From the NCBI RefSeq assembly GCF_964204645.1, contig NC_134030.1:15314110-15378109 (forward strand): a stretch of DNA of 64,000 bases. The letters are read 5' to 3'. Each line of letters begins with the position of its first letter. The stretch's first letter is position 1. Position numbers and translations under genes: made by a program. The notes under the pieces are model-generated. The model searched no databases. It was not told the DNA's origin and worked only from the letters and a program-made list of their open reading frames with translations. This DNA comes from Tubulanus polymorphus. Taxonomy: Eukaryota > Animalia > Nemertea. Shown here in pieces: positions 37,215 through 63,092 of this stretch.

Positions 37215-37244
37215 ACATAAATAATTAATTTTTTTGTTAAATAA

Positions 37245-40603: not shown

Positions 40604-41127
40604 AGTAATAGGGGTAATGGGCTTTCATACCAAAGGTCGAACGGTCGAGCCCATTAAAAAACAAAACATTAAAAGTAATTAAAAACTATAATATATTTTC
40701 ATAACCGCGTGCATTTTATATTAAAACTAAATATTTATTCTAAGATATCAATAATTTACAATACACAAATTCATATAATCAAATATATTCAAATAATAAT
40801 GATTATTCTATTATTCAACTGAAATGCACGCGGTTATGAAAATATATTATAGTTTTAAATTACTTTTAATGTTTTGTTATTAATGAGCTCGACCATTCAA
40901 CCTTTGATATGAAAGCCCATTACCCCTATTACTCTTAAAATATTCATATAAATGAATAACATTTAAATCATTGAACTTCTAAAATCAATTTTAATAAAAA
41001 ATTTATTATTAAAATGGAAGCAAATAAGTACTACTGTCCAACATGTAATATCAACATAGATAAATCCCAAAAAGCAAGACACAATAAAACTAAAACACAT
41101 TTAGAGAATAAATTGAAACTAGAATAT
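40604..41127 (+). repeat. Left TIR of copy C (40604-40933 self-palindromic)
   Basis: Reverse complement of 58422-58946 with a few differences. Confidence 0.96.
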
Positions 41128-44100
41128 AAAGATGATATATTAGAAACTAAATTAGATGAATTAAAGAATGCAAAAGAAACATACAAATGTGATACATGTA
41201 ATCAATCATTCAGTGATAAAAGATATTATAAAGAACATTTAAAATCTAAAAGTCATATTGGAAATATGAATAATGATATTTTAGGTGAAGATTATTTTGA
41301 TAATGATAAAGATAATAAACATAAGACAATTAAAAAATAAATTAAACAATAAAAGACCATACATGGAAGATGTAAGAAATTATATTAATTCATTAGATAA
41401 TAAAAAAGATATAGAGATAACCGAAGCATTTAAAAGTGATATTGGTCCAGCAGCTATCGAGTTTAAATTTCATAAAGGAAAAACATTAGAAGAAAATAAA
41501 AACATTTAGAAAATATGAAAAATATTATAAAAATAATTACTGATGTTGAATATCCTAAAATAAGTATATCAGTTAAAGTAAAGTTTATAAAATCTGAAGA
41601 TAAACCAATATATAATATAAATTCTCATTCACAACAAATTATTTCAAAACAACATGTAGATGATAAATTAGATAAATGTTATAATGAAGTAAAAACTAAA
41701 ATAGAAGAGAAATATTTTGAAGGATCTGGTTTAATATTTGACGAAATAATATTTATGACTTTACATGTTTATAACACAAAATATAATAAGTTAACTAAAT
41801 CAAAACCAATCGATGAAAATAATGTATCATATTATAAAGAACCAGATATTGAAGCATCGAGTTATATCAAACTACCATTTAAAACTAATGCTGTTATAAA
41901 CGTACAAAATTTTGATGATAAATGTTTTCTATGGGCTATAATAAGTTGTTTACATCCAACAGAAGATATTACACATAGTTTTAGATTAACTCATTATAAA
42001 CCATTTGAAAATAATTATAAGATAGATAAGTATCCTGTTAGAATTAAAAACATCCCAAAAATAGAAAGAGATAATAATATAAAGATTAATGTATTTGATT
42101 TAATCAAATTACCAAATACAAAAGGTAACAATATAAAACATTATACATTAGAACCTTTATATCTATCAAAAGATTATGATTCAAACGATGTTATAGATAT
42201 ACTATATTATGAGAATCATTATATGTGGATTAAACAAATCGATTTATTTTTCAAATCAGAAAATGATCACCATAAAATATATCTTTGTAGAAAATGTTTA
42301 CATAGATTCAGTAATGAAAGAACGTTATTAAATCATAAACAATTATGTGAAAATCATGATTATTGTAAATCAGTTTTACCAAATGAAAAAGATAAAATAT
42401 TAGAATTCAAAAAATATGATTACAAAAATAAAGTACCATTTGTAATATATGGAGATTTTGAATCATTAAATAAAGAATTAACTGATCAAGATAGAAAAGA
42501 TATATATTATAAAAGAAAGAAATTAAATTCTAATGAAAATGATTTTTCAGATGAACCACCAAAAACAAATACTATTAAAAAGATTCATCAATCAGCTGCA
42601 GCTTTCGGGTTATATATTAAATCTGATTATCCAGAACTAATTGAAAGTGAATATTATAATTATAGAAATGAAAATGTTATCAATCATTTTTGTGACTTAT
42701 TAATTGAATATGAAATAAAATTTAATGAAAAGTTAAATAAAAATATAGAAATTATAATGACAGAAGAAGATAAAGAAGCATTTGCGTTTGCAGATAAATG
42801 TTATTATTGTGAAAAGATATTTGATTATAAAGATAAAAAAGTAAGAGACCATGATCATTTGAATGGAAAGTTTAGAGGCGCTGCACATGAGAATTGTAAC
42901 TTACAAGCTAAGAAAATTAACTTTGTACCAGTTATATTTCATAATCTATCAGGATATGATGCACATTTATTCATCAAACAGTTATGCTATAAAATAGAAG
43001 AAATCAATAATGAAATAGAAAGATTAAATTCAAATAGATCAAAAGATAAAATACCAACTTATAAATTTAGAATGTTAGCTTAAACATCTGAGAATTATAT
43101 ATCATTCCAATTTGGTTGCCTAAGATTTATAGATTCATATAGATTTTTAAATAGTTCATTAGATAACTTATCAAAATCATTAGTTGATGATGAATTGAAA
43201 ATATTAAAGCAACACTACCCAAATAATGATGATTTTCAATTAATGAGATATAAAGGAGCAATTCCATATTCTTTCTATAAAAATCATAATGATTTTAACA
43301 TAACTGAATTATTAAAAGAACAATTCTATGATGAATTAAAAAATGAATATGTTAAAGATGAAGTCTATAATAGAACATTGAATATTTGGAATCATTTCAA
43401 AATGAAAAATCATGGGCAATTAGTAGATTTATATTTAAAATCAGATGTATTATTATTAACCGATATATTCGAAAGGTTTAGAGATGTAAACCTAAAATAT
43501 TTTAATATTGATCCTTGTCATTGTTATTCATCACCAGGATTGACATGGGATTGTGGATTAAAATTTACAGATATAAAAATGGATTTGTTAACAAATATAG
43601 ATCAATTATTATTATTTGAAAAATCTATAAGAGGAGGAGTTTCAGGTGTATTAGGTGATAGATATTTCAATGTAAATGATAATCCTGGATATAAGTTATT
43701 ATATATAGATGCAAATAATTTGTATGGTTGGGCAATGATGGAACCACAACCTTATGGAGTATTTGAATTAACTGAAGTTTTACAGAATGAAAATAATGAT
43801 AAATTTGATTGGAAGAAAAGAATTCTAGATATTGCAGATGATTCAGATACTGGTTACTTCTTTGTTGTAGATTTAGAATATCCTGAACATATTAAATTTA
43901 AATCTAGAAATCTAGCATACTGTCCCGAACATAAAACTGTAACTCATGAAGAATTATCAAATTACCAAAAAAGAATTAAACCTGAAAATCATATTCATAC
44001 AGAAAAGTTAATGGTAACTCAAGAAGATAAATATAATTATGTAGTACATTATAGAATGTTAAAGTTTTATTTGAATCAAGGAATGATTCTAAAAAAAAGT

Positions 44101-45043
44101 ACATAGATATATTTCGTTTAGTCAATCTAAGTGGTTAGAAAAATATATAGATTTTAACACCAAACAGAGAACTGAAGCTAGAACTGATTTCGAAAAAGAT
44201 TTCTTCAAGTTAATGAATAATGCATTCTATGGTAAGACTTGTGAAAATATTAGAAATAGAAATGATATTGAGTTAGTTAGTAATGGTAAAAGAATTAGAC
44301 ATTTACAAACATAGCCTAAGTTCATTGGTAACAGAATATTTGATGAAAATTTAGCCGCAGTTAAGATGAGAAGAACATCAATGAAATTTAATAAACCAAT
44401 CTATGTTGGCGCTTCAGTTTTAGAATTATCAAAATTACTAATGTATGAATTCTATTATAATGTATTACAACCACTTTTTGGAGAAAAACATATAGAAATA
44501 TTATATTTTGATACTGACAGTTACATATTAAAGATAAAAACTGATAACATAACTGATGATTTAAAAACATTAAAACATCATTTTGATTTTAGTAACCGTC
44601 CTAAAGATCATGAATTGTTTAGCAATGATAATAAAAAAGTTCCCGATAAATTCGAAGATGATTTAGGCGGTGAAGAAATGATTGAATTCATAGGTATTCG
44701 ATCTAAAATGTATTCATATAAAACTAAAGAACATGAAGCTAAAAAGTTAAAAGGAATAACCAAAAGTGTAGTAGAAAAGAATATTCATTTCAAAGATTAC
44801 ATCAATTGTATATTCAATGAAGAAGTTAGAAAACATAAAATGAGATGTTTAAGATCTGAAGATCATGAAATGTTTATTGAAGAGATAGAAAAGATAAGTC
44901 TAAACCCATTTGATGATAAAAGATATATTTTAGATGATGGAATTCATACAGTTGCTTATGGTTGCAATTCAGATGAATACTTAAAATTTAAAAGAGAAGA
45001 AACAAAAGAGAACGAGATAATGAAAAGAATTCTAACGTGTTAA
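41014..45043 (+). pseudogene. Protein-primed DNA polymerase B polyprotein, copy C (C2H2 fingers, TP-like region, vOTU-like protease, exonuclease with EndoVII-like insert, polymerase)
   Basis: CPTC..H..H fingers; KCFLWAI...ENHY; VIYGDFES; CYYC..RDHDHLNGKFRGAAHENCN; motifs A/B/C. Broken near 41335, 41500, 43081, 44095 and 44311. Confidence 0.95.
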
Positions 45044-45072
45044 TCAAATTTTAATAAAAATATGTTATTAAA

Positions 45073-45426
45073 ATGGAGAGTAAACAAGCACACAGTGAGA
45101 ACAACAAATTATTTCTAGATAGAATTAAAGATATAACAAATGTAAAATCTGTAGATCATAAATTCAAAAAGTTGACAGAATTAACAATCCATAAGAAATA
45201 TCTAATTACAAATATTGATACAGTTGCTAACAAACATGGAGATAAATTAGTTATACACTTAGAATATGAAGGATTAAAAGGAAATACATATAAATTCAGA
45301 ACATATTTACCGGATAGATTTCATAGATTATCAGGTGAAGATTTAGAAGAATTATGTTCTGGAGATTTCTATTTCGTATACAAAGGTAAGAATGAAAAAG
45401 GGCACCATGAAATAGATTTCGAATAA
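45073..45426 (+). CDS. 117-aa protein, possibly OB-fold ssDNA-binding
   Basis: Intact, conserved in three copies, directly after pPolB, beta-rich pattern. Function is inferred. Confidence 0.55.
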   Translation: MESKQAHSENNKLFLDRIKDITNVKSVDHKFKKLTELTIHKKYLITNIDTVANKHGDKLVIHLEYEGLKGNTYKFRTYLPDRFHRLSGEDLEELCSGDFYFVYKGKNEKGHHEIDFE

Positions 45427-45440
45427 AATATGTAAAATAA

Positions 45441-46190
45441 ATGGTGGAATTAAAAGAATACAGAATATTTGTTGATTCTAGAAGACTTACAAATTATAAA
45501 TCACATAATTTACTAGTACAATTAGAATTTAAGAATTGTGTTGATTTAAAGTTAGTTAATATAAGTTTATGTAATTCTTTTTACAATGTATCGGATAAAA
45601 CTTTTGAACATAGAGGGTTTATGATTTATATGAGAAATAAAGATAAATGGTTTCATATATTTTTAAAACCAGGATTATATAATTTAGAATCATTAGCGCT
45701 GGAAATTAATAGAAGAGCTCGGTTGAAAATCGGGGGCACTTCTGTATTTGAAATTAAATTTAATAAAATTGATAGTACTAATAAAATTAGAATAAAGATA
45801 TCTAATGAACAACATAAATTTATGGTAAACAAACCACTGGCTAAAATGTTAGGAATTAAACCGCTTACAGTTACTGGAAATGCAGAAGGCAGCTCAAATA
45901 TAATACCTTTTACACACTTTTATATTTATTGCAATTTAATCGAGCCTACAAAAACTTTCGAAGCAACTAAAGAAACAATTTGTAATTCTAGTATACTAAA
46001 TATTTTACCGCTAAAAAATGTTAAACAATTTGGAACTCAAATAAATTATAATTTAACAGAATGTGATTTCAAACCTTGTATTCCAAAATTTAATAATTTT
46101 AAGTTAGAAATAAGAAATCACAATGGATATTTAATTGATTTGAATAACTTTCCTGTGATATATGAATTAATTATAAGATGTAGAGAGTAA
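45441..46190 (+). CDS. Minor capsid protein (penton, single jelly-roll)
   Basis: IFVDSR..., PGLYNLESL..EIN, FYIYCNLI, LEIRNHNGYLIDLNNFPVIYELIIR pattern typical of Polinton/virophage pentons. Confidence 0.8.
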   Translation: MVELKEYRIFVDSRRLTNYKSHNLLVQLEFKNCVDLKLVNISLCNSFYNVSDKTFEHRGFMIYMRNKDKWFHIFLKPGLYNLESLALEINRRARLKIGGTSVFEIKFNKIDSTNKIRIKISNEQHKFMVNKPLAKMLGIKPLTVTGNAEGSSNIIPFTHFYIYCNLIEPTKTFEATKETICNSSILNILPLKNVKQFGTQINYNLTECDFKPCIPKFNNFKLEIRNHNGYLIDLNNFPVIYELIIRCRE

Positions 46191-46206
46191 TTTTTTCATT
46201 ATATAA

Positions 46207-46564
46207 ATGAATATAACTGTTGGACCGAGTATATGTTTTGGGTTTGATTTTAAACATGAGAAATAAATGAAATTTAACATTAATGATGTAATTACACATA
46301 TCAAAAATATTGCATTTTCTAATGAAACAACATTTGAGTATGAAACAACAATAGATAAAGAAACTTTAAATGTAGAAAAGATTACTAATTTAATTAGAGA
46401 ATCTTTAAGATTTTATGAATTAGATGAAGATTTTATCATCGATGATATTAAAAAAAATAATAATTGAAATATATACAAATGAAACTAGTAATGAAATAAA
46501 TGTTGAATTAATCATAAATAAGATAACTAAATATTTTGATGATAGTAATTTTTTGGATAAATAA
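46207..46564 (+). pseudogene. Unknown 118-aa protein (broken here; intact at 32940 and 63283)
   Basis: Comparison between copies. Confidence 0.75.
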
Positions 46565-46786
46565 ATGAGTGATAATAAGTGGATAATAACTGGATTATAT
46601 AACGGCGCATTACTATCAGTTGGAACTGTTGGTTATTCAATGGTATTAAAAAAAGTATTCAAAATGGGAAGTGTTAATGTTGATAGATTTGATATAAATG
46701 ATATTTTAAAATTAACATTAGCAGTTACTTTATCTAATTTAACTATTGATTATTTGGAAAAACAAAAATATATTCCTCCCATATAA
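46565..46786 (+). CDS. 73-aa hydrophobic protein
   Basis: Also intact at 63640; two hydrophobic stretches. Confidence 0.75.
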   Translation: MSDNKWIITGLYNGALLSVGTVGYSMVLKKVFKMGSVNVDRFDINDILKLTLAVTLSNLTIDYLEKQKYIPPI

Positions 46787-46811
46787 ATGCATAATTTTTT
46801 ATGCTAAATAA

Positions 46812-47234
46812 ATGGCTTCTGCAATTATAACTATTATAGGATCGGCAATTGTTAACGCTTTAGCATTTACTGGTGGTGGATATTTATTTAAACATATTGA
46901 TAAAAATAGTTCATTAGGAGAACAAAGAAGACATAACTTAGCGTTAGAGAAATATAATAAAGCTGCAGAAGAATATAGAGAAAAGAGACAAAACTATATG
47001 GATTACATCAATAAAGAATTATATGATCAGAAGATTTCACATAGAGATTTTCAATCAGTTGATGATGCAATGAGTTTATATAACGCGGTAACCAATAAAG
47101 AAAAATTACATCTATACAAACCTAAATTATCAGATTATTATACCCCAAGTAAAGAACAACAGAAATATGAAATAATATGGATTTTAGGTGGAACTGTTAT
47201 TGTTATATTTGTTGCTTATAAATTTACTAATTAG
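46812..47234 (+). CDS. 140-aa predicted membrane protein
   Basis: Hydrophobic N-terminus and C-terminal IIWILGGTVIVIFVAY; intact in three copies. Confidence 0.8.
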   Translation: MASAIITIIGSAIVNALAFTGGGYLFKHIDKNSSLGEQRRHNLALEKYNKAAEEYREKRQNYMDYINKELYDQKISHRDFQSVDDAMSLYNAVTNKEKLHLYKPKLSDYYTPSKEQQKYEIIWILGGTVIVIFVAYKFTN

Positions 47235-47254
47235 TAATTTTTTTTGCTAAATAA

Positions 47255-47689
47255 ATGGAAGATAAAGTTGATAGTATTGATATTATTCCTCATGATATAA
47301 ATAAAACTAAATTAAAAACATATTTAGAAAAACAAATATTAGAATTTGAAAATGACTTAAAAGTTAAAAAGAAAAAATATTTAAAAAGTAAAATTATATA
47401 TTATTTGATTATAAGTGGTTCGGTTACAATTAGTTCTGTAATAACATTTTTAGCAATATTCAGCCCATTAACACCTTTAGCTATATCAATTGGTGTGTTA
47501 GGATTAAGTTCAAGTGTTTTAACTGGTATAAGTTCAAAATTAAATATAAAAAGTAATAAAGAAAAAATTAAAACTAATATAAAAGAAATTAATAAATTAA
47601 AGAACACACTAGATTATATCATAAGTTTAAATGGTCATATAACAGTTGAAGAACAAGATAAATTATTAAAAGAATTAATAAATTATTAA
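47255..47689 (+). CDS. 144-aa predicted two-TM protein
   Basis: Central hydrophobic hairpin flanked by Lys-rich helices. Confidence 0.75.
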   Translation: MEDKVDSIDIIPHDINKTKLKTYLEKQILEFENDLKVKKKKYLKSKIIYYLIISGSVTISSVITFLAIFSPLTPLAISIGVLGLSSSVLTGISSKLNIKSNKEKIKTNIKEINKLKNTLDYIISLNGHITVEEQDKLLKELINY

Positions 47690-47705
47690 TTTTTTAATTA
47701 TATAA

Positions 47706-49094
47706 ATGGTAGATAGTTTTCCAAAAGCTTTCCAATATAATAAATCAATTAAATATAATATTCCAGCAATAGATTTTAATAAAGATATTACATATAGAAA
47801 TGAAGTTTTAGATTCATTAACTAATTTAGAAATTTATGTTACTGAAACTAATAATTTTAATGCAAAGATGGAAAATATATTTCATGTATATTTAATTAAT
47901 TTTAAAAAATTGAAAGATGAAAAACAATGGTTATTAAAATCTAATATGAAGTATTGGCAGAACCAATTAAATTTTGCTGTTTATTGTTCAACAACAGGAT
48001 GTGGAATAAGTTGGAATGATCATTTGAATAATTCTAAATATAAACTAATTCAAAAATTATTTAGATTTCATACATACTTTCAAATCAGAATAATATTAAA
48101 TGAATTAGAGTGCGCTTTACCAGGATCAAGATATTTTAAAGAATTAGATAATAATAATAATTTATCTAAGTTTTATAAAATTTGCAATGAATTTAATATA
48201 GATATAAATAATTCTGATTTTAGAACAAAAATTGGAACAATAAGATCACTTCCTTGCCCTAAAAAGATTGCAGAATATTTTTACTTCCCATACCATCTAA
48301 TAGCTTTTATAATATCTATAATAATAAATTAGGTTATGGTAAAATAGAAACTAAGGATTTAGAAACATTAAATTTCAATAAATTACCGAAATGTTATGAT
48401 CATTTAAAACAAGAAAACAATAATGGTTGGGTTTATTTTATTTTAGAAAATAGTGAAGGTTTTACTAAATCAGGTATAGAAAGAATAAATCAATCTATTA
48501 GAACTTATTTGATTTGTATTCTAGGATCACAAGTTGAAACAAGATCACCGATAATTGGAAATTTGAATACATCATTTGATACACAGAAACAATTTAAAGT
48601 TTTATTTGAAGATTCCATTCATAATGATAAAATAGATCGATTCCAGAAAACATTATAAGATATCAAAATTATTTAGATAAATCTCATATAAGACTTAATT
48701 ATTATATAGGCCCTAATCTATTAATTATTTCTAATGATTTAGTATTAAAGATGGGAAACATAATTGGTTATAATAATCTAATTAAAACTGCAACAATAAA
48801 TAATTCATTTGGGTTAAATGATATAAATAAAAAGATTATCACTGCTCCAAAATTAATGGAAGGTGTAAAAAATAAAAAAAACACATTCAATCAACAGAAA
48901 CTAAAACTAATAATATCAAATTAAATAATGATTCTAAAATAAAAGATTACAATACATCAGAAAATAATAGAACTGATATTATTCAACATGATATAATTAA
49001 ACTAAATGATGATAATAAATCCCATGAAAATGCTAAATTAGCTATAACTTGTATAGGAATTGTAATCGGAGGAATATTATATTTTAAATTTTAA
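47706..49094 (+). pseudogene. Unknown protein with C-terminal TM anchor (disrupted)
   Basis: Homolog of 34435-35766; WQNQLNFAVYCxTTGCGIS conserved. Confidence 0.7.
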
Positions 49095-49110
49095 TTTTTT
49101 TGTTATGTAA

Positions 49111-50579
49111 ATGGATGTAGAAGGTGGAGAAGATTATGAAATGGAAAACATGGGAAATAATGATGATGCCAATACTAACAATGATGATTATATGACTGCT
49201 GATACTAATATTGATAATGATAATGATACAACATGTAATTCTAATTTAGCAGATAGTGGTTCTAAAGTCCCATCAACAGATGAATTTGATAGAAGAACTA
49301 GATCGAGAATAAATCCTGAAAATGAAAATCCATATTTAATAAGACAAGATTTAGAAAATATAAACCAAGCGCGTAGATTACAACATATATTTGAAAGATC
49401 TTAATATAATATAAATTTTAGAGACGCCAGAATTTTAGCACAAAATTTAGAATTTTTAGATGATGAATATTATTATCATTTGACTGGTGATTATTATATT
49501 GATATCTCTTATAAAAAAACAAAACAAAATATTAAAAGAATCAACTTTGCTTAAGTTAGACCTATCTAGAATTAAAAGAATAAGAAATAGTAATGAAATA
49601 GAAAATGTAACACAAGAAGAAATTATTAAAAATGAAAGAGTATTTAAACAAAGACTTAATGAATTATTTGAAACAATCAAAAATAATTCAAAAACAGAAA
49701 CAACTTCTGAACACAATAAAACATCCAAAACTAGTAAAATTAAATCAAACGAAGTTCAAACTGAAAAACTTTTACCGAATGGATTACTTGATGCAACAGA
49801 TCAGCAATTAGAAGATTTAAATATATTTTCTGATGAAGCAATTAGAGAAATTATTAGTATAAGAAATGAAGCTGATAAAATTGCACATAATAAAAGTATA
49901 AGAGATCAAAAAATTATGTATTTGGAAAAAGAATTAACTAATGCAAATAAAGAAATAGAACAAATAAAGTCTGATTTAGATCATCAAGTAATTGATGAAA
50001 TAGAATATAGGCAAAAAGAATTACGTTTAGAAAAAGAAATTAATAATTTAAAAGATAATTTAGAAGTACAGAAAGAAGAAATTAAATTATCATTAAAATC
50101 ATATGATTATAATATTAATAGATTAAAAGTTATTTTTAAAGATTTGTTGATTAAACCAAATTCTGAAATATCATTAAAAGATAGAATAAAGTTATTATTT
50201 AAATTAGAAGGAATAACAATTCTTTCAATTCTAACAGCTGTAACTATGTTATTTACAACAATAGGTTTAGCTATATCAAATGCTTTAAAATCTACTCCTA
50301 CTCCCACTCCCAATAAACCAGATAAACCTCCAGGTAATAATTCTATACAAGATAAAGTTAAGGATGGTTTAAAGAAATTAGCAAAATATTTATGGGAACT
50401 ATCTAAAAAATCTGCTGCAGCATTTGCCAGGAGTTATTGCATCAATTGTTGGTTTTATATTGAAATCTGCAGGAAACATTATTAACTTTGCTGCTGAACA
50501 TATTATTTTATTTTTAATTACAGTTGTAAGTGCAATTATTTTTGGTTTAGTAAATATAATATCAAAAAATATCAAGTAA
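49111..50579 (+). pseudogene. Acidic/coiled-coil protein with C-terminal TM segments (disrupted)
   Basis: Homolog of 35783-37214. Confidence 0.7.
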
Positions 50580-50645
50580 CCATGATATCAAAAGATATCA
50601 AGTAAACCTGATCAAAAATAAATAATTAATTTTTTTGTTAAATAA

Positions 50646-51893
50646 ATGAGTGGGAGTTATATCATTCCTTCGAAGAATCATAGAATATCTAATGCTATTA
50701 AAGCAGAAAGATCACATCGTATAATTACTCATAACCCTTCAAATATTAATCCCGATGAAACTTTATACGTTAGAATCCCTCGATTAACAAAAAATACTTT
50801 TTATGTTCCAAATAGTATTTAATTATCGGCCGATATAAAAGTAATCGGTAACAATAATAATTATGTTGTTGATAATGTTGGAAGATATTTGATTAAAAAG
50901 TTAACAATAAAGATTGGTCCAGAAACAGTTTTCTCATTAGATGATTATAATTTATTTATGCATTATAAAGATTTATGGTTAACTAAAGAAAATAGAAATA
51001 ATATGATATTTCAAGGCATCCAATCAGAAAACCAAAATAAATTAAGATCAGAAGCTAATAGCGCAATATTAACTAATGCTGTAGATAAATTGATAAAAAG
51101 TATATATGGAAGCAAATATAAAATTCCATTAGACTTTGAATTGATAAATAATAATGCACCTTTATATAAATACGCAATTCAAGAAGACGTTATATTCGAG
51201 ATAACATTTGCTCCTGTAAATGAAATTGTATTATCTAGCGTTAATAAAGATATGAGTTATAAATTATCGAATATATGTTTAGAATATGACACAGTAACTG
51301 ATGAAAATATTTCAAGTATAATTCAAACTAAATACAATCAAGGATTTTCATTATTATATGATTATATTGATAAATTTAAAACTGTAACTATTAATGCAAA
51401 TGATGAAATAATTAATGAGAATATTAACTTCCCAAGAAGATCTATTAAAGGTATATTAATATTTTTTACCATTGCAACATATACTAATGGCGCAATAAAT
51501 GTTGATAATTATTATAATCCTGAAATAACAAAAGTAGAAATAACTATCGAAGGAATAGCAAATAAAATATTTTGTCAAGGAATAAGAATGATTGATCAAT
51601 GGCCAGAAATTAGAAAACATTTTATGAATGAAAAAGTGAAATCATCTGAAAATTGTAACATTAATCAAATTGATTATTATACCGGCAATAGATATGCATT
51701 ATGGTTAGATTTTAGAACAACAGAGGATAATTCATTACATGGTTCTGGAAAAAAACTACAGAACACTAAAGATGGAATACAATTATTCATGACAAAGAAT
51801 AAAGGAATCAAAAATTTTAAAATGCACATTTATATTATATCTGACGCGCAATTAAATATTGTAAATTCACAATTAGATAGTGTTATGTATTAA
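50646..51893 (+). pseudogene. Major capsid protein (double jelly-roll), one premature stop at about 50820
   Basis: About 415 codons in one frame. Beta-strand-rich pattern (LYVRIP, LIKKLTIKIG, YKIPLDFEL, ICLEYD, YALWLDFR), size and position fit. Confidence 0.75.
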
Positions 51894-51925
51894 AATTTTA
51901 ACTTTAATAAAGATATATATAATAA

Positions 51926-52756
51926 ATGGAAGGAGGTAAAGTATATAAACATATTCCATACATCGATACACATGAAAATAATGATGGTTTATATTATGTA
52001 ATACCTTGTAATATAGCTTTGATATTTGATCCTATTTTCAAAATTTATAAAACTAAACTAACAGAAATCGATAATAATAAAAGTGAAGTTGTTGATAATT
52101 TAAGTAATGTAATTGATAATAATGTAATACCTTTTACAGTAATACCTACTACATCTAATAATGTTATACCTACTACATCTAATAATGTAATACCTTCTAC
52201 ATATAATAATGCAATAATATTAAATGTTAGTAAAAATAGAAATTATTGTGATTATTGTAAAGGTGAATTTTCAAACGCTCCATCAAATTGGAATAAACAT
52301 ATGAATATAAAGGTACATATTACTAATGTTATAGAACGTGTTGGTTTAAAAGAATTTATAGAACACCCATTTAGATATGTTACAAAATTTGTTTCAAATC
52401 AAAAAGTAAATGGTAAAGAATTATATAAAGATTTATTATTAGCAACACCTAATAAAGATGAATTAGATCTAACCGATGCTAATGAAATATTAGAATCAAA
52501 CACTGAAAATGAAATATTAGGAGCAAACACTAATAAAGATGATAATGAAAATACAGGAAAGCGCATTGATAATAAAGATTCTATGAAACTTAAATCAGAA
52601 AATAAAGATATAGTTGAGCTGCCTAATAAGTATATCAATAAACCAATTATTTATGAAGATACGGTAGAGCATTTGAATAAATTGTTAGGGCCTGATAATG
52701 AATTGGAGAGTGATGATGAAAGTGATTCAGAAATTAATTATCTAACAATCAAATAA
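51926..52756 (+). CDS. 276-aa unknown protein with C2H2-type finger and NNVIPTTS repeats
   Basis: CDYC...HMNIKVH; 24-bp tandem units at about 52118-52210; TAAATG start. Confidence 0.7.
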   Translation: MEGGKVYKHIPYIDTHENNDGLYYVIPCNIALIFDPIFKIYKTKLTEIDNNKSEVVDNLSNVIDNNVIPFTVIPTTSNNVIPTTSNNVIPSTYNNAIILNVSKNRNYCDYCKGEFSNAPSNWNKHMNIKVHITNVIERVGLKEFIEHPFRYVTKFVSNQKVNGKELYKDLLLATPNKDELDLTDANEILESNTENEILGANTNKDDNENTGKRIDNKDSMKLKSENKDIVELPNKYINKPIIYEDTVEHLNKLLGPDNELESDDESDSEINYLTIK

Positions 52757-52888
52757 TAATAAAGGTTGAAAATTGTATAAACTAATAGTAAATAAAAAAG
52801 GGGGTTTTAAGTATTTAAGGTATCTAATAGGGTATCAGGTATTAGGGTATCAGGTATTAGGGTATCTAATACATAGTCATATAAATAG

Positions 52889-53500
52889 TTATTTTATAAA
52901 TTTATATTCATAGGGAAATTGTAGTCTCAGTAATAATTTTGAACCTTTATTATTCTTTAATTTATTCATTTATTCATCATGTAATTCAGTAGGTATAATT
53001 TGATTTTCTTCCAATGATTGTTGCATAGATTTTTTATATTTGTTATAAAATAAAACTAGAAATCTAATGTTTTCTCTAAAGTCTTTAACAATTGTATCAT
53101 ATTTTTGATTTAAAACCCAAGTTGTTATCCCAAAATGTCTCCCAGAGAAAGCTAAATAACATAACTCACTTTCTCTCACTTTTGAATCATGTAAATTTGC
53201 GCAATCATCTACAATGAATAATGTATTTGATCCTTTATAAGTATCAATTGCTATTTTTATACAATTATCTAAATTTTCTTTTACTGTTTTAGGATCTAAT
53301 ATAATAAACTTTTTCATCTTAACTATATCTCTATTATATGTTTTATTCATTTCATAAGTAGGACAAAATAATATTATATTATCAAAATGATTCTTATAAA
53401 TAGTTTCTAACAAGTCTAATATGAAATGTGTTTTACCACAATTGGTTACTCCAGTAACTAACATATTATGCGGTTCAAATATAAATAAATCTTTATTCAT
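52889..53500 (-). pseudogene. A32/FtsK-like genome-packaging ATPase (premature stop at 52970)
   Basis: Walker A GVTNCGKT, Walker B FIVDD, GRHFGITTWVLNQ motif. The frame continues past the stop to 52889. Confidence 0.9.
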
Positions 53501-54578
53501 TTATTCTTTTAATTTTGCTAGATAAAATCCATTCATTAAATTTATCATCGTATCCTTTATATTTAACCAAAGAATACTTTTTTCCTTTAAGAGATTTTGT
53601 TTTCAATACTTTTTCTATTTTGTATTCTATTTCATCTGGGTTTGGTACAAGTGATAATTCTTGTTCATAGAAATAACCTAATATTTCTTCATCTTTTAGA
53701 TCTTCTAATTTATAAACAAAAGGTTTAGTTAATATTATCTTTTTAATTTTAAATATTTCTTCAGTAAAATTTGGGGTATAACCTTTATAAAAGGGTTTTC
53801 TATATTTAGATATTCTTACGTGTTGTCCAATTTTTAATCTAGGTTCACCGAAAGCATGTGTAACAAACGCACCATATAAATTATTCCAAACTATTTCTGA
53901 ATTATCTTCTTTTCTAGCTTGTATAGGTTTCATATTTATAGAACTATGTTTAGAATTATTATAACCTTTCACCAAATCATCTAACACATCGATATATTTA
54001 TATGTTTCATTAGCAGTAAAATATTTCCACATTCTAGTTTTCAATGTTTTATTAAATCTTTCTATAATAGATGCTTTTTTATCTGAGTGTGTTGAAAAAT
54101 ATTTTACATCGTTATCAGATAATAGTTTTTTGAAATGTTTGTTATAAAATTCCTTACCTTCATCAAATTGTATCTTATCTGGAATAGCTTCTTTAAATAT
54201 AGATTTAAAAGCATTTGTTACTTCTATTCCAGTTTTATTTTTGATTGGAATTGACCATGCGTATCGACTGAATATGTCTATAACATTCAGTATCCAGAAA
54301 TATCCTTTGTTGTATTCTTCTAAGTTCTTCATGTCAATTAAATCTGCTTGCCATTGTTGATCGATATATGAAACCATAACTTTTCTTGTTAAATAAGTTT
54401 TATCCATTTTCTTGTGGATTTGATATGTTGGTTGATTTTGTAACCATGATTTTAATTCACTATATTTTATATTGCTATTATCAGATTTAATTTTATTCCA
54501 TAATTCTGAAACGTTAGAATATGATACTTCACTCTCTGGGTTATAATATAAATCTCTAAGATATTGTTCTTTTTTCAT
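53493..54578 (-). CDS. Retroviral-like (RVE) integrase with C-terminal chromodomain
   Basis: WQADLID, IQFDEGKEF, IIERFNKTLK (DDE triad); YKIEKVL...VKYKGYDDKFNEWI chromodomain. Confidence 0.95.
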   Translation of the reverse strand: MKKEQYLRDLYYNPESEVSYSNVSELWNKIKSDNSNIKYSELKSWLQNQPTYQIHKKMDKTYLTRKVMVSYIDQQWQADLIDMKNLEEYNKGYFWILNVIDIFSRYAWSIPIKNKTGIEVTNAFKSIFKEAIPDKIQFDEGKEFYNKHFKKLLSDNDVKYFSTHSDKKASIIERFNKTLKTRMWKYFTANETYKYIDVLDDLVKGYNNSKHSSINMKPIQARKEDNSEIVWNNLYGAFVTHAFGEPRLKIGQHVRISKYRKPFYKGYTPNFTEEIFKIKKIILTKPFVYKLEDLKDEEILGYFYEQELSLVPNPDEIEYKIEKVLKTKSLKGKKYSLVKYKGYDDKFNEWILSSKIKRINE

Positions 54579-54752
54579 CTTCTTTTAATCCATTAATAAT
54601 AATTTAGAATTAGTTTCAATGGTTTTATGATTTGACTTATTCTGGTATAATAGGTTTACTGTCCGGATAACTAAGTTTCCGATTATAATTGGAATCATTA
54701 TTGTTATAATCAGATTTATACTTATATTTATATATTACACCGGATAATATAA

Positions 54753-54983
54753 TTATAATAATATAATAACTGTTACTAATCCAATTGTAATATATAATTT
54801 ATAATTACTTCCAGCATTAGAAGAATCAGATGGATTATTATTTGAATCAATATCAGATAATTCATTTATATCGGTTAATTTCTTTTTCTTAGCTTTTTTT
54901 AATTCTGAGGATCTTTTACCTAATTCTCTTGCCCATTTAATTTGTTTCTCGGATCTAGCCTTTTTCTTAACGCTATCACTCAT
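54753..54983 (-). CDS. 76-aa basic protein with C-terminal hydrophobic tail
   Basis: TAAATG start, Lys-rich N-terminus, LYITIGLVTVIILL. Confidence 0.6.
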   Translation of the reverse strand: MSDSVKKKARSEKQIKWARELGKRSSELKKAKKKKLTDINELSDIDSNNNPSDSSNAGSNYKLYITIGLVTVIILL

Positions 54984-55578
54984 TTATTTTACTTAATTTT
55001 TGTCTTGATTCATTTTCTGTTTCGACGTTTGGTTGTAGTACATCTGTTTCGTTCTTACCTGATTTATATTCCATAGGCTTGATGTTCGAAAATGTTATGA
55101 CGCCAGTAGAAATTAATGTCATAACCGATCCTAATTGAAATGAAGCATAACCAACCCATTTTTTTAATTCAGTCATAACTAAGTAGTCATTTTTTAAATC
55201 ACTATATAATTTATTTTCATCATCAATTGGTATTAACTGGTTACATAACTTAGAGTAACATTTGACAATACCATCTGAAATAGAATCATTTATTCGGGCT
55301 AATCTAGCTTCTTCATAAATCTTAAAATATTTTATTACTTTATCTGGTTTCATAGAGTCTAGTTCTTGAAAAGTAATGATTCTATTTAAAAACTCCTTAG
55401 TTTTTCCACCGGCAATCAATAGTTCTAGATGATGCTTACAATATAAATAGTATTCATAATCTATATTACAATTAACTTGAGCACAATTGGTTACAACTGT
55501 ATCTTTATTATCACTTATACCCAAATCATCTAATGTCTTTTCAATATCAATACTATTCTTATTAGATTTCTTTGACAT
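54976..55578 (-). CDS. 200-aa unknown protein
   Basis: Intact ORF with T-run/TAAATG start; overlaps the next gene. Confidence 0.7.
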   Translation of the reverse strand: MSKKSNKNSIDIEKTLDDLGISDNKDTVVTNCAQVNCNIDYEYYLYCKHHLELLIAGGKTKEFLNRIITFQELDSMKPDKVIKYFKIYEEARLARINDSISDGIVKCYSKLCNQLIPIDDENKLYSDLKNDYLVMTELKKWVGYASFQLGSVMTLISTGVITFSNIKPMEYKSGKNETDVLQPNVETENESRQKLSKINE

Positions 55579-55979
55579 TTATATTAGAGAAAAAAAGCAA
55601 AAAAATATTATAAGTATTCTTCAAATGATACTAGTATCTCTTTAGGTTAATACTAAATTGACTAGGTTAGTTAAAGTTAAAGAATTTCTATTCAAAATCT
55701 ATTCAATCTAATGTCAATTAGAATTACCAAAAGAAAATATTAAAAATATAATAGAATTCACTAGCTAGTTGAAGTTATTGTTTTTTTATTATATTTTATT
55801 TAAATTAGGATTTAGATTATCTCACTACTATTGTTTATCTATAGGAGCAGTAACTATAACTGTCCAGATAAGTCATTTCGGATTCTCGATAATAAATCCT
55901 AAAACTGAAAATAAATTCAAAGAAACGACTGGTGGAAATATTATTTCATAAACACATATATTTATTATGTAAATTTTAG

Positions 55980-56332
55980 CGATCGATAATAGAACAATGG
56001 AGAACAATAGAAATGCGGTCCAATCGGACCAGTTATTGCGCAATACACAGTTATATTTTTATTCTGTAAACTACAACATTCAAACATAGAACTGTAACCA
56101 ATCAATATTGAGCAGCTGTTTCAGTCAACAACGATCAATAGTAGAACAACGGAGAACAATAGAAAAGCGGTTCAATCGGACCGGTTATTGCGCAATACAC
56201 AGTTAACAGTAAACAATCAATACAGAACAACCGCCGCCATTAACAACGATCAATAATAGAACAATGGAGAACAATAGAAAAGCGGTTCAATCGGACCGGT
56301 TATTGCGCAATACTTAGTTAACAGTAAACAAT
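55980..56332. promoter_or_regulatory. Three-copy direct-repeat array (about 75-90-bp core), candidate enhancer or origin
   Basis: Each unit carries AGAACAA(T/C)GG-AGAACAATAG and the palindrome TATTGCGCAATA. The repeat is seen directly; the function is inferred. Confidence 0.6.
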
Positions 56333-56409
56333 ACAATATTAAAACAGATATATACAATCGAGATTACATTTTTGATATCTATATTACAAAGACCTTCAGT
56401 GTTATAATT

Positions 56410-57132
56410 TATAATTTTGTCCAGAATTCTTTAATTACTGGATTGTTTCCAATCATTTCTTCAATTTCTGGTAAATATCTGACTACTTCACTAAATGCTA
56501 ATCCTAATATTTTGAATTTTTCATATTTTATTAATCTACTACCCTTCTCAGTTTTCTTTCAAAACCGGCACTGATATCTATGTTCTTTTTAACCCACAGC
56601 CCCCAAGAAATCCCCTCAGTTTCTTTATCAAACATTGAAAACCCTATATTTAGATAACCCCCGAAAATGATGTGGTCCCATAGGTGATTTGCTTTTCTAT
56701 TTAATATGGTGTTATAACTTTTTTTTAAGATATCAGTAATTTCAGCAAATGAAATAACTTCTACACTTTGTATTTCCGGAAAGTTTAAATGTTCTGTGTC
56801 AATGATTAATTTAGATTTTAAAAACTCGTTCAACTCTTCTCCACTCATTTTCTTAGTTTTCGATTCTTTGAGCCCCAACAGCAATTTGAGTCGCGTTGCT
56901 GGTAATTTTGGTAATTGTAGTTCGCGCGGTAATTGTTTATAATGTATTACATCACTCAGAATTTTCACCATTTCTTGATGATAGTCCAAATGTTCTTGTA
57001 ATTTTTGTGAAGTTTGTTCGTCAATTACGAGAGTTTCATCCTCCATTTCTATTGATTCCTGAGTTTCACTATCCAGCAGCAATCGTTCTCATCCGTTGGT
57101 TGGCTTAGAATTGGTTGATCTTTGTGTTCCAT
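56410..57132 (-). pseudogene. Unknown protein (core ORF 56531-57082, probably frameshifted at both ends)
   Basis: TAAAATG start at 57132; coding-like continuation to about 56410. Confidence 0.55.
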
Positions 57133-57553
57133 TTTAATCTAAAAGATATCGTGAAAATGAATTACTGTACTTAAATATGTTTAAAGGTTTCCCTACTTCA
57201 TAATAACTACAAAAAACGGTACTTACATTTAGATTTAGAACTGTAAACTGTGTTTTGAGAGAGAATATCCAATACGTACTATGTATGTGAAAGTTGATTT
57301 CTAACTGCCGACGTGGCGCACGTTCGACCAAACTAATTACTTCTGCATGTTTGCATGGATTGTAACAGATGTTCCTTTGTGATGTAATTGATTAATCCTT
57401 TTCAACTGAAATAGCACATTCGATCAATATTCAAATGAGGTGCGCCCCATTCAACTGAATATGAAGTACGGCACAGATGTTTTTGTAAACAACCTAATAC
57501 AATTACATATAGGCGGTTTGACATAGATCGAGAGTAACCGGTTTTCTAAGCGT

Positions 57554-58204
57554 TTAACATTCAACGTATTTTTCATTATGTGTTGAGTTCCATAATTCAA
57601 CAAATGTCTTTGCTTTATGCAGTTGATCTAAATATAACTGTATATCTAGTTTATTAGATTTAATTATATTTTCTTTCTTTTCAAGAGGCCTTAAATTTCT
57701 CCAACCCCAAATAAGTTTTTTATTGTATTCATCATTCATGTTAAATTTAGAAATCGGCAACACATGATCAATATGAAAGTATTCACCATAATTATCTATA
57801 TTCATTTTATCGTCGAATTGATATATTATCCATGATTTTAAGAATTCATCTGAACAACCCAATAAATTAGATAGTGTTTTTGAATGCGTTTCTTTGTTGA
57901 ATAATTGTGTTAATCTAGATCTTAAACACTGTTTCAATCTAAAATTAAGATCTGTTTGATATCTTTCTCTCATATATTCTGCCATATAATAATTATAATG
58001 TTCTATATTATCTTCTCGGTATTGTTTGGTATATAGTTTAGTGCAAGTTTTACAACAATATTGAAAACCATCTTTGCTAATCTTACGCTTACTAAATTCT
58101 GTTAATGATTTATCTAATTCACATTTAGAACACTTCTTGTAGTATATGTTTATAACGCCAGTGTTATTTGTAATATTGATAATTTGTGGTTGTTCTGGTT
58201 CCAT
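57554..58204 (-). CDS. HNH endonuclease with N-terminal Cys4 zinc ribbon
   Basis: CSKC..CKTC; FHIDHVLPISKF...NLRPLEKKENIIKSNK. Confidence 0.85.
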   Translation of the reverse strand: MEPEQPQIINITNNTGVINIYYKKCSKCELDKSLTEFSKRKISKDGFQYCCKTCTKLYTKQYREDNIEHYNYYMAEYMRERYQTDLNFRLKQCLRSRLTQLFNKETHSKTLSNLLGCSDEFLKSWIIYQFDDKMNIDNYGEYFHIDHVLPISKFNMNDEYNKKLIWGWRNLRPLEKKENIIKSNKLDIQLYLDQLHKAKTFVELWNSTHNEKYVEC

Positions 58205-58283
58205 TTATTATACCTATTTTTTTACTAAATTGGTTAATAATTTTAGAATCCTCTTCCATTTCTTCGACCAACGTCATCCTTTT

Positions 58284-58535
58284 TCATTCCTCGCTGCTTT
58301 TGATAAGTTGTTTCGATTCCTTGATATCAAATTCCTCAACGTATTGTTCATTATTTGGATCATTATTCCATAATTCAATAAATTTCTTTCCCTTTGTTAA
58401 CTGTTCTGAATATAACTGTAAATATTCTAGTTTCAATTTATTCTCTAAATGTGTTTTAGTTTTATTGTGTCTTGCTTTTTGGGATTTATCTATGTTGATA
58501 TTACATGTTGGACAGTAGTACTTATTTGCTTCCAT
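58284..58535 (-). CDS. TIR-borne duplicate of the pPolB N-terminal zinc finger fused to an HNH-like tail
   Basis: First 38 aa are identical to the start of the 41014 ORF. Confidence 0.65.
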   Translation of the reverse strand: MEANKYYCPTCNINIDKSQKARHNKTKTHLENKLKLEYLQLYSEQLTKGKKFIELWNNDPNNEQYVEEFDIKESKQLIKSSEE

Positions 58536-58946
58536 TTTAATACTAAATTTTTTATTAAAATTGATTTTAGAAGTTCAATGATTTAAATGTTATTCATTTA
58601 TATGAATATTGTAAGAGTAATAGGGGTAATGGGCTTTCATATCAAAGGTTGAATGGTCGAGCCCATTAAAAAACAAAACATTAAAAGTAATTAAAAACTA
58701 TAATATATTTTCATAACCGCGTGCATTTCAGTTGAATAATAGAATAATTATTATTATTTGAATATATTTGATTATATGAATTTGTGTATTGTAAATTATT
58801 GATATCTTGGAATAGATATTTAGTTTTAATATAAAATGCACGCGGTTATGAAAATATATTATAGTTTTTAATTACTTTTAATGTTTTGTTTTTTAATGGG
58901 CTCGACCGTTCGACCTTTGGTATGAAAGCCCATTACCCCTATTACT
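58422..58946 (-). repeat. Right TIR of copy C (58616-58946 self-palindromic)
   Basis: Reverse complement of the left TIR. Confidence 0.96.
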
Positions 58947-61900
58947 AACACTACCCAAATAATGATGATTTCCAATTAATGAGATATAAAGGCGCAATTC
59001 CATATTCTTTCTATAAAAATCATAATGATTTTAACATAACTGAATTATTGAAAGAACAATTCTATGATGAATTAAAAAATGAATATGTTAAGGATGAAGT
59101 ATATAATAGAACATTGAATATTTGGAATCATTTCAAAATAGAAAATCATGGACAATTAGTAGATTCATATCTAAAATCAGATGTTTTATTATTAACCGAT
59201 ATATTCGAAAGGTTTAGAGATGTAAACCTAAAATATTTCAATATTGATCCTTGTCATTGTTATTCTAGTCCAGGTTTAACATGGGATTGTGGATTAAAAT
59301 TTACAGATATAAAAATGGATTTGTTAACAAATATAGATCAATTATTATTATTTGAAAAAATCTATAAGAGGAGGAGTTTCAGGTGTATTAGGGGATAGAT
59401 ATTTCAATGTAATTGATAACCCTGCATATAAATTATTATATATAGATGCAAATAATTTGTATGGTTGGGCAATGATGGAACCACAACCTTATGGAGTATT
59501 TGAAATAAGTGAAGTTTCACAACATGAAAATAATGATAAATTTGATTGGAAGAAAAGAATCCTAGATATCGCAGATGATTCAGGTACTGGTTACTTCTTT
59601 ATTGTAGATTTTGAATATCCTGAACATATTAAATTCAAATCTAGAAATCTAGCATACTGTCCAGAACATAAAACTGTAACTCATGAAGAATTATCAAATT
59701 ATCAAAAAAGAATTAAACCCGAAAATCATATTCATACAGGAAAGTTAATGGTAACTCAAGAAGATAAATATAATTATGTAGTACATTATAGAATGTTAAA
59801 GTTTTATCTAAAACAAGGAATGATCCTAAAAAAAGTACATAGTTATATTTCATTTAGTCAATCTAAGTGGTTAGAAAAATATATAGATTTTAACACCAAA
59901 CAGGGAACTGAAGCTAAAACTGATTTTGAGAAAGATTTCTTCAAACTAATGAACAATGCATTCTATGGTAAGACTTGTGAAAATATTAGAAATAGAAATG
60001 ATATTGAGTTAGTTAGTAATGGTAAAAGGATAAGGCATTTACAATCATATCCTAAGTTTTTAGTTAACAGAATATTTGATGAAAATTTAGCTGCAGTTAA
60101 GATGAGAAGAACATCAATTAAATTTAATAAACCAATCTATGTTGGTGCTTCAGTTTTAGAATTATCAAAATTACTAATGTATGAATTCTATTATAATGTA
60201 TTACAACCACTTTTTGGAGAAAAACATTTAGAAATCTTATATTTTGATTACTGACAGTTACATATTAAAGATAAAAACTAATAACATAACAGATGATTTA
60301 TAAACATTAAAACATCATTTTGATTTCAGTAATTATCCTAAAAATCATGAATTGTTTAGCAATGATAATAAAAAAGTTCCTGGTAAATTCAAAGATGAAT
60401 TAGGTGGCGAAGAAATGATTGAATTCATTGGTATTAGATCTAAAATGTATTCATATAAAACTAAAGAACATGAAGCTAAAAAGTTAAAAGGAATAACCAA
60501 AAGTGTAGTAGAAAAGAATATTCATTTCAAAGATTACATCAATTGTATATTCAATGAAGAAGTTAGAAAACATAAGATGATATGTTTAAGATCTGAAGAT
60601 CATGAAATGTTTATTGAAGAAATTGAAAAGATAAGTCTAAACCCATTTGATGATATAAGATATATTTTAGATGATGGAATTCATACAGTTGCTTATGGTT
60701 GTAATTAAGATGAATACTTAAAATTTAAAAGAGAAGAAACAAAAGAGAACGAGATAATGAAAAGAATTCTAACGTGTTAATCAAATTTTAATAAAAATAT
60801 GTATTATAAATGGAGAGTAAACAAGCGCACAGTGAGAACAACAAATTATTTCTAGATAGAATAAAAGATACTTCAATTGTCAAATCAGTAGATTATAAAT
60901 TTAAGAAGTAAAAAGAATTAATAATCCATAAGAAATATCTTATTACAAATATTGATACAGTTACTAACAAATATGGACATAAATTAGTTACACACTTAGA
61001 ATATGAAGGATTAAAAGGAAATACATATAAATTCAGAACATATTTACCGGATAGATTTCATAGATTATCAAGTGAAGACCTAGAAGAATTATGTTCTGGT
61101 GATTTCTATTTCGTATATAAGGGTAAGAATGAAAAAGGGCACCATGAAATAGATTTCGAATAAGAAAATATGTAAAATAAATGGTAGAATTAAAAGAATA
61201 CAGAATATTTGTTGATTCTAGAAGACTTACAAATTTTAAATCACATAATTTACTAGTACAATTAGTTAGATAATTCAAGAATTGTGTTGATTTAAAATTA
61301 GTTAACATAAGTCTATGTAATTCTTTTTATAATATATCGGATAAAACTTCTGAACATAGAGGGTTTATGATTTATATGAGAAATAAAGATAAATGGTTTC
61401 ATATATTTTTAAAACCAGGATTATATAATTTAGAATCATTAGCGCAGGAAATTAATAGAAGAGCTCGGTTGAAAATCGGGGGCACTTCTGTATTTGAAAT
61501 AAAATTGATAGTACTAATAAAATTAGAATAAAGATATCTAATGAACAACATAAATTTTTGGTAAACAAACCACTGGCTAAAATGTTAGGAATTAAAGCGC
61601 TTACAGTTACTGGAAACGGAGAAGGCAGCTCAAATATAATACCTTTTACACACTTTTATATTTATTGCAATTTAATCGAGCCTTCAAAAACTTTCGAAGC
61701 AACTAAAGAAACAATTTGTAGTTCTAGTATACTAAATATTTTACCGCTAAAAAATTTTAAACAATTTGGAACACAAATAAATTATAATTTAACAGAATGT
61801 GATTTTAAACCTTGCATTCCTAAATTTAATAATTTTAAATTAGAAATAAGAAATCATAATGGATATTTAATTGATTTGAATAACTTTCCTGTGATATATG

Positions 61901-63092
61901 AATTAGTTGTAAGATGTAGAGAGTAATTTTTCATTATATAAATGAATATAACTGTTGGACCGAGTATATGTGTTGGGTTTGATTTTAAACATGAGAAAGA
62001 AATGAAATTTAACATTAATGATGTAATTATACATATTAAAAATATTGCATTTTCTAATGAAACAACATTTGAGTATGAAACAACAATAGATAAAGAAACT
62101 TTAAATGTAGAAAAGATTACTAATTTAATAAGAGAATCTTTAGGATTTTATGAATTAGATGAAGATTTTATCATAGATGATATTAAAAACATATTAACCA
62201 AAATATATGATAATCAGTAATGAAAAGTAGTAATGAAATAAATGTTGAATTAATCATCACTAAGATAACTAAATATTTTGAAGATAGTAATTTTTTTGAT
62301 AAATAAATGAGTGATAATAAGTTGATAATAACTGGATTATATAATGGAGCATTACTATCAGTTGGAACTGTTGGTTATTCAATGGTATTAAAAAAGGTAT
62401 TTAAAATGGGAAGTGTTAATGTTGATAGATTTGATATCAATGATATTTTAAAATTAACAGCAGTAACTAATCTAATTTAACAATTGATTATTTAGAAAAA
62501 CAAAAATATATTCCTCCCATATAAATGTTTAATTATTTTACTAAATAAATGGCTTCTGCAGTTATAACTATTATAGGATCGGCAATTGTTAACGCTTTAG
62601 CATTTACTGGGGACGGCTATTTATTTAAACATATTGATAAAAATGGTTCATTATCAGAACAAAAAAGACATAATTTAGTATTAGAGAAATACAATAAAGC
62701 AGCAGAAGAATATAGAGAAAAGAGACAAAACTATGTGGATTATATTAACAAGGAATTATATGATCAGAAGATTTCACACAGAGATTTTCAATCAGTTGAT
62801 GATGCAATGAGTTTATATAACGCGGTAACAAATAAAGAAAAATTACATCTACATAAACCTACAATATCAGATTATTATACCCCAAGTAATGAACAGAAGA
62901 AATATGAAATAATTTGGATTTTAGGGGGAACAGTTATTGTTATATTTGTTGCTTATAAATTTACTAATTAGTAATTTTTTTTGCTAAATAAATGGAAGAT
63001 AAAGTTGATAATATTGATATTATTCCTCATGATATCAGTAAAACTAAATTAGAAATATATTTAGAAAAACAAATATTAGAATTTGAAAGTGA
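58947..63092 (+). mobile_element. Polinton copy B, right portion (pPolB 3' half to 60780, then downstream genes)
   Basis: Resumes exactly where 40603 stopped; colinear with about 43211-47350; multiple lesions. Confidence 0.93.

Follow-up and report, generated by a model that had tools for sequence, protein, structure and literature searches.

Nearly every gene of element B, an 18.3-kb element in the genome of the nemertean Tubulanus polymorphus, starts with TAAATG or TAAAATG. As judged from its sequence context, TAAATG probably marks transcription starts for an RNA polymerase of the poxvirus post-replicative type, which a co-infecting pox-like virus would supply in trans; the element would then be a satellite of that virus. 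Element B occupies positions 40604-58946 of a 64,000-nucleotide stretch of contig NC_134030.1 (15,314,110 to 15,378,109, forward strand; assembly GCF_964204645.1), hereafter the window. It is a decayed Polinton-type provirus and the most complete copy in the window; the decay is evident from its several broken genes.

TAAATG is enriched at the gene starts of element B

Among the 17 curated starts of element B, TAAATG was present at 13 and TAAAATG at three (16/17 together). By comparison, TAAATG was found at 26/414 other sense-strand ATGs (Fisher p=6e-12) and the two forms combined at 31/414 (p=5e-16). When non-start ATGs were matched for AT content the background stayed at 3-4% (12/270, 2/75 and 1/25 at upstream AT of at least 0.80, 0.85 and 0.90), and in the host flank (1-24500) TAAATG was seen at 26/910 ATGs. 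A sequence-only reading of this DNA had listed these 13 starts, the TAAAATG starts at 41014, 45073 and 57132, and a T6-N7-TAAATG example at 32924-32942; all read exactly as claimed, and the pattern proved stronger than that reading had stated. Four of the starts (46207, 49111, 50646, 57132) belong to genes broken in element B; sibling or related genes back 46207 and 50646, and no homologue backs 57132.

Other parts of that reading held in part. Of the same-strand gaps measured, 12 of 13 were between -8 and 66 nt, which confirms the proposed intergenic distances of about 0-70 bp; that in front of the integrase was scored as 174 nt, the open reading frame (ORF) upstream of it probably being truncated. 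These distances do not apply upstream of the starts at 55578 and 57132, where about 950 and 420 nt were found. The proposed upstream T-run is present as a strict T6 at 8/17 starts, with an A-tract at most others. The integrase, named as an exception, does lack TAAATG at its ATG in element B (TAAA lies a few nt upstream) and in the related locus L008, but the integrases of L001 and L002 start at TAAATG, and a deliberate exception was therefore rejected as not conserved.

The motif is conserved in related loci

By capsid alignment we fetched 22 related loci from metagenome assemblies, and their starts were called without reference to the motif, as the first ATG following a stop in non-nested ORFs of 70 aa or more. 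Over all 22 loci TAAATG was found at 60/94 starts vs 44/1429 internal ATGs, and in 15 of them at 60/68 starts vs 41/1214 internal ATGs. L014/L015 gave 0/8 at 29-30% GC and L018-L022 gave 0/18, the latter being decayed fragments whose 18 'starts' are not true starts. The motif was retained in L017, with only 35% capsid identity (3/3 starts), and in the GC-richer loci L004, L005 and L010 (36-44% GC; 9/11 starts vs 0/158 internal ATGs). A curated list of 75 starts contained 68 TAAATG and 3 TAAAATG. Seven gene pairs are arranged head to head, six of them with 14-30 nt between the ATGs, which leaves no space for two ordinary promoters with leaders; TAAATG was present at 14/14 of these starts.

A quick tree built from 36 capsids placed the 13 rows that scored as TAAATG on one side of a modestly supported branch (SH-aLRT 88) and L014 on the other; 22/36 rows are without DNA, L017 forms a long branch and reference Maverick group 1/2 capsids are not included. 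L014/L015 represent a sister lineage (45% capsid identity). At most of its starts TATA or TATAG lies no more than about 15 nt from the ATG, resembling the late initiator of African swine fever virus (ASFV).

Could AT-rich composition, Kozak bias and stop-start packing produce the motif as an artefact? The element is indeed only 21-25% GC, and 3/46 same-strand junctions are stop-start (two scored as such, plus the junction of the 119-aa and 73-aa genes, to which a broken frame gave a scored gap of 17 nt although the genes abut in two intact sibling copies). Set against this, the AT-matched background is far below the observed frequency, and the motif persists at 36-44% GC yet is missing from L014/L015 at lower GC. 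Moreover, base -3 is T in 13/17 starts, the opposite of the Kozak preference. The AT-matched, GC-richer-locus and curated-start counts already refute this explanation, which we regard as extremely improbable; AT content, Kozak bias and stop-start coupling, the sequence-level objections that the sequence-only reading had itself raised, all failed to account for TAAATG. A splice acceptor was likewise rejected, as AG occurs within 12 nt of the ATG at 5/17 starts (0/8 T-tract starts) and is lacking from the other 12.

Fine structure of the start signal

Upstream of TAAATG the sequence is A-rich at -15 to -13, followed by Ts. T stands nine bases ahead of the motif, ten ahead of its first A, at 13/13 window starts and at 92% of 60 related starts. 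Where a T-run of at least 4 is present the spacer to the motif is 6-8 nt in 35/49 cases; 26/75 starts have no such run. Vaccinia late promoters are described as having TAAAT(G) that spans the start codon, with a T conserved ten bases upstream (PMC11980589). Both traits were found here, TAAAT overlapping the ATG and a T about 10 nt upstream within a T-tract; the fixed T lies at -9 from the motif's T and -10 from its first A, and the one-base offset from vaccinia may be a matter of numbering. The comparison is with the published vaccinia consensus as given in reviews.

Vaccinia intermediate promoters, as described in the same paper, have TAAA and an A-rich upstream region without the conserved T (PMC11980589). 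In our set, T-tract starts belong to the capsid, 200-aa, 144-aa, 442-aa and 73-aa genes and A-tract starts to the packaging ATPase (6/6 copies), the 276-aa gene (3/3), the putative penton (2/2) and pPolB (the protein-primed DNA polymerase B). Tract type tracks gene family across loci (eta2 0.55 vs 0.28 in within-locus shuffles, p=0.004, n=49 starts), and vaccinia A32L is an intermediate gene.

The sequence-only reading had also linked the T-run to poxvirus concatemer resolution. In vaccinia the resolution site, itself late-promoter-like, adjoins the hairpin ends (PMC8956199), whereas the T6-N7-9 pattern occurs at 8 internal starts of element B and 0 times in its terminal inverted repeats (TIRs). 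This link was therefore dropped, the position pointing to a promoter rather than a resolution site.

Probable transcription by a pox-like helper

If a pox-like virus supplies the polymerase, excised or virion-delivered element DNA would reach the helper's cytoplasmic factory. The only machinery to read it there would be the post-replicative one (intermediate and late), from one promoter per gene. Poxvirus early transcription takes place in the core, and a set of intermediate/late-type promoters only, even for the polymerase, is what would be expected if the DNA arrives outside the helper's core. Initiation would occur within AAA, with slippage adding a 5' poly(A) leader, so that the poor T at -3 would never be part of the mRNA. 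In poxviruses the motif is described as templating a 5' poly(A) leader by slippage in this way, and foreign plasmids are reported to collect in vaccinia factories (PMC1079961). Possibly, and on weak grounds, A-tract promoters (polymerase, packaging ATPase) fire before T-tract ones (capsid, most small genes). The integrase would maintain copies in the host genome, those in the window having since decayed.

Virophage-type elements have no RNA polymerase of their own, and none was recognised in element B or the 22 loci (Pfam, PHROGs), searches with limited sensitivity for small unassigned genes. By analogy, element B may work like a poxvirus virophage. The earlier proposal of a pox-type promoter and helper dependence gains from the conservation in divergent, GC-richer relatives, the head-to-head genes, the fixed T and this lack of a recognised polymerase; its helper, however, was not found. 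For the further suggestion that integrated copies serve as inducible defence, the analysis gave no support in either direction, and the window's copies are broken.

Several observations weigh against a pox-like helper. Searches of the window and the loci with Pfam, PHROGs, PDB and for homologues detected neither a helper virus nor pox-derived genes, those for transcription included, and yeast elements that bring their own polymerase likewise use a TAAAN initiator. The grouping of 15 loci was made post hoc, after the loci had been looked at, and near-duplicates (L002/L003, L006/L007, L011/L013) are among those counted. Absence of the motif outside the TAAATG group is seen in L014/L015 only (0/8); control DNA from other Maverick groups was not found in viral contigs or a phage collection, and genome contigs gave one ATPase fragment at a contig edge. 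A-tract starts retain the upstream T that vaccinia intermediate promoters reportedly lack, and the 117-aa, 119-aa and HNH families change tract type between loci, so that two temporal classes are hypothetical. On the helper's side, TTTTTNT is depleted in coding frames (8 vs 26.9 expected; 28 frames, 28.8 kb), but A6 runs are depleted too (ratio 0.58) and the deficit may reflect general avoidance of runs. In the same frames AATAAA is about as frequent as in codon shuffles (103 vs 109.5 expected), which fits cytoplasmic transcription, although the comparison has no nuclear-gene control.

This last count also bears on the host as provider, either through RNA polymerase II with an AT-rich initiator and a near-zero 5' untranslated region, or through TAAATG as a clade-specific translation signal, acting in leaky scanning or in reinitiation on long messages. 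The nucleus is where Polintons integrate, and some eukaryotes use very short leaders; AATAAA lies at about -30 in the upstream window of 43/75 starts, where it could end an upstream transcript, and the three stop-start junctions are true ones. The idea is difficult to combine with T at -3, a poor scanning context, with head-to-head starts that keep the motif at 14/14 without an upstream same-strand gene, with the lack of AG within 12 nt at 12/17 starts, including all 8 T-tract starts, and with AATAAA not being avoided in coding frames. We consider it unlikely.

Another provider could be a companion cytoplasmic element or larger sibling encoding a pox-related RNA polymerase, as pGKL2 does for pGKL1, with no need for a poxvirus. 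The pGKL elements use a protein-primed polymerase, and they are not known to have a capsid or to integrate. Like element B these yeast virus-like elements are described as AT-rich with compact genes and a TAAAN initiator, and their transcripts as having 5' poly(A) leaders; unlike it they have their own polymerase and capping enzyme and require an upstream conserved sequence (PMC6211774). That upstream element is akin to pox early promoters (PMC6211774), whereas the motif of element B has the pox-late T-tract and ATG overlap. No polymerase-like gene was seen in the 18.3-kb element or the 22 loci, and Pfam searches of element B and related ORFs gave neither an RNA polymerase nor a capping enzyme such as the pGKL elements encode. 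A companion element has, in our view, a small chance of being the provider.

Finally, the helper could come from outside Poxviridae, say from an undescribed sister group: a different large DNA virus of the cytoplasm with a late initiator that is TAAAT by coincidence. The host is apparently not a known poxvirus host, close poxvirus relatives have newly been described in a paper without mention of promoters, and ranavirus polymerase genes are reported to have a related TAAAT upstream of them. Reviews, on the other hand, describe TAAAT(G) fused to the start codon for poxviruses, with TATA in ASFV and TCTA in Cafeteria roenbergensis virus (CroV), and we judge such a helper quite improbable.

Returning to a pox-like helper, the whole clade of integrating Polinton-like viruses could be true poxvirus virophages with a two-step intermediate/late programme, marking undiscovered host poxviruses, and L014/L015 (TATA-like) may be tuned to an asfarvirus-type helper. 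We hold this wider view tentatively, as possible but short of probable. If true, the promoter would name the helper.

Comparison with known systems

Compared with vaccinia intermediate/late promoters as described (PMC11980589, PMC4542343, PMC5294985), element B shares TAAAT over the start codon, the T about ten bases upstream with flanking Ts, the A-rich variant on the packaging ATPase and very short intergenic gaps. It differs in being an integrating Polinton-type element with no recognised RNA polymerase, in its A-tract starts that keep the T, and in that its promoters are putative.

The entomopoxvirus-associated Polinton-like viruses (PLVs) AHEV_PLV1/2, CBEV_PLV1 and Ca_PLV1 (PMC11296320) are also small double-jelly-roll viruses; they are present in entomopoxvirus occlusion bodies and were proposed to be poxvirus parasites, one being integrated in an insect chromosome. 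By that description their genomes measure some 12 kb and encode a cysteine protease; no integrase was detected in the two that have PolB, and the others rely on a tyrosine recombinase. Element B has an rve integrase, no detected protease and another gene set; the two are set apart here by their descriptions. The main text of that 2024 paper mentions no promoter, motif or TAAAT.

Mavirus/EMALEs, Sputnik and Gezel-14T are likewise integrating or satellite double-jelly-roll viruses, whose upstream motifs match helper promoters, different types carrying different motifs (PMC8547959, 10.1101/2022.07.28.501842). They differ from element B in their protist hosts, Mimiviridae-type helpers, motifs (TCTA and AAAATTGA) and experimentally proven dependence. 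Promoter sharing between satellite and helper is thus already established for protist virophages and Gezel-14T.

With Mavericks/Polintons and the animal elements allied to Aquintoviricetes (10.64898/2026.06.19.733378, PMC8502044) element B has in common a 15-20 kb size range, TIRs, pPolB, rve, A32 and a double-jelly-roll capsid. TIRs with a 6-bp target duplication, pPolB with rve integrase (Pfam) and an A32 ATPase with a double-jelly-roll capsid, all found here, place it among Polintons/Mavericks in the broad sense. The adenovirus-type cysteine protease that marks Maverick group 1 had no Pfam match among 25 window ORFs or 20 related ORFs, several genes being without assignment. Together with a capsid that gives only a weak Capsid_N match and is 39% identical to a bivalve protein, this suggests that element B may lie outside Maverick groups 1 and 2.

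We found no published report of pox-type promoters in Polintons in a search that took in open literature and, of supplements, only those of PMC11296320, subscription journals lying outside it; two Polinton papers (10.64898/2026.06.19.733378, PMC8502044) are without the word 'promoter'. A clade-wide poxvirus-type promoter, if true, would bear on how Polintons are transcribed and mobilised in animal genomes, a subject on which one recent Polinton paper states that no virions were seen. It predicts hidden pox-like viruses in the hosts, and start motifs offer a route to assign helpers to endogenous elements.

Gene content and anatomy of element B

The termini of element B and the copies around it are as follows.

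24568..39177, +: sibling copy A and fragments (TIR, pPolB to capsid N-terminus), start motifs the same as in element B
40597..40603: left target-site duplication of 6 bp, AACACT, adjoining the terminus and inside a sibling pPolB gene
40604..41145, +: left TIR, about 545 bp, 97% identical to the right TIR
58404..58946, -: right TIR, with the same terminal palindrome as the left
58947..58952: right target-site duplication AACACT
58953..64000, +: rest of the sibling copy hit by the insertion of element B, and a partial duplicate

The genes of element B are, in order:

41014..45043, +: pPolB with N-terminal zinc finger and endonuclease VII-like stretch (Pfam DNA_pol_B_2 2e-7, Endonuclease_7 5e-5), broken into several frames; TAAAATG with A-tract, located within the TIR
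45073..45426, +: 117-aa gene, no assigned function; A-tract with TAAAATG, which is TAAATG in two sibling copies
45441..46190, +: 249-aa gene for a putative minor capsid protein, judged by its size and position alone; TAAATG, A-tract
46207..46564, +: gene of about 119 aa, broken here, intact in siblings (32940-33299, 63283-63639) and with a homologue in L001; T6-N7-TAAATG
46565..46786, +: small conserved protein of 73 aa; TAAATG with T-tract
46812..47234, +: conserved protein of 140 aa; TAAATG with T-tract
47255..47689, +: 144-aa predicted membrane protein, weak SLATT match below cut-off; T-tract TAAATG
47706..49094, +: conserved gene, broken in element B and 442 aa long in L001; TAAATG with T-tract
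49111..50579, +: long gene of coiled-coil-like type, likewise broken, 485 aa in L001; TAAATG with T-tract
50646..51893, +: major capsid protein, double jelly roll, premature stop; T7-N6-TAAATG
51926..52756, +: 276-aa gene, no assigned function; A-tract TAAATG
52970..53500, -: A32-type packaging ATPase, 176 aa vs 204 aa in relatives (Pfam Pox_A32 6e-12); A-tract TAAATG
53493..54578, -: rve integrase with chromodomain (Pfam rve 1e-9, Chromo 2e-4)
54753..54983, -: 76-aa ORF (129-177 aa in relatives); A-tract TAAATG
54976..55578, -: 200-aa lineage-specific protein; T7-N8-TAAATG, the roughly 950 nt upstream being free of same-strand genes
56531..57132, -: broken gene, TAAAATG start without homologue backing
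57554..58204, -: HNH/endonuclease VII-like nuclease (PHROG 1035, E=5e-18); A-tract TAAATG

A capsid model made on the L001 relative (73% identical) reached pLDDT 85, and its closest known folds in Foldseek were iridovirus and PBCV-1 (chlorovirus) capsids (E~1e-15); Pfam gave no DJR_capsid match. The predicted fold of the 442-aa protein was uninformative (pLDDT 34). Capsid relatives with 54% identity were seen on short contigs in several assemblies labelled Bartonella sp., probably as eukaryotic contamination. L001 also carries a deoxynucleoside kinase gene (L001:10340-10981) starting with T7-N6-TAAATG, for which only 4 unnamed relatives were found at E<=1e-20.

GC content falls from about 36% to 21-25% from 24.5 kb onward in the window, where several element copies are nested. 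Element B landed in the polymerase gene of a sibling with a 6-bp duplication; the interrupted pPolB runs 40222-40604 and resumes at 58947 onward. The copies are 88-98% identical, which indicates fairly recent activity of the element. Host-like DNA breaks up the copies at 29601-32362 and 39180-40220. Searches for tRNA and Rfam families gave no matches.

Each TIR of element B starts with a long, near-perfect palindrome of 330 bp (40604-40933 and 58616-58946), and the left one folds with z=-22. That of copy A (24568-24760) is 193 bp with a different centre. The terminal 24-mer of the repeats is present six times. These palindromes resemble an extrudable cruciform or hairpin end, which is unexpected for a protein-primed genome. 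A short inverted repeat, noted by eye at 52753-52955, flanks the gap between the convergent 276-aa and ATPase genes. The host flank is rich in repeats, which together with the 39% identical bivalve capsid relative points to an animal host. Within this flank, a GIY-YIG fragment (19012-19491; Pfam 1e-5), probably Penelope-like, lies within a long inverted repeat (18680-19939), and a 57% GC island at 21716-23236 with Cys-rich and RS-rich frames, without a Pfam match, is possibly a retroelement gag remnant.

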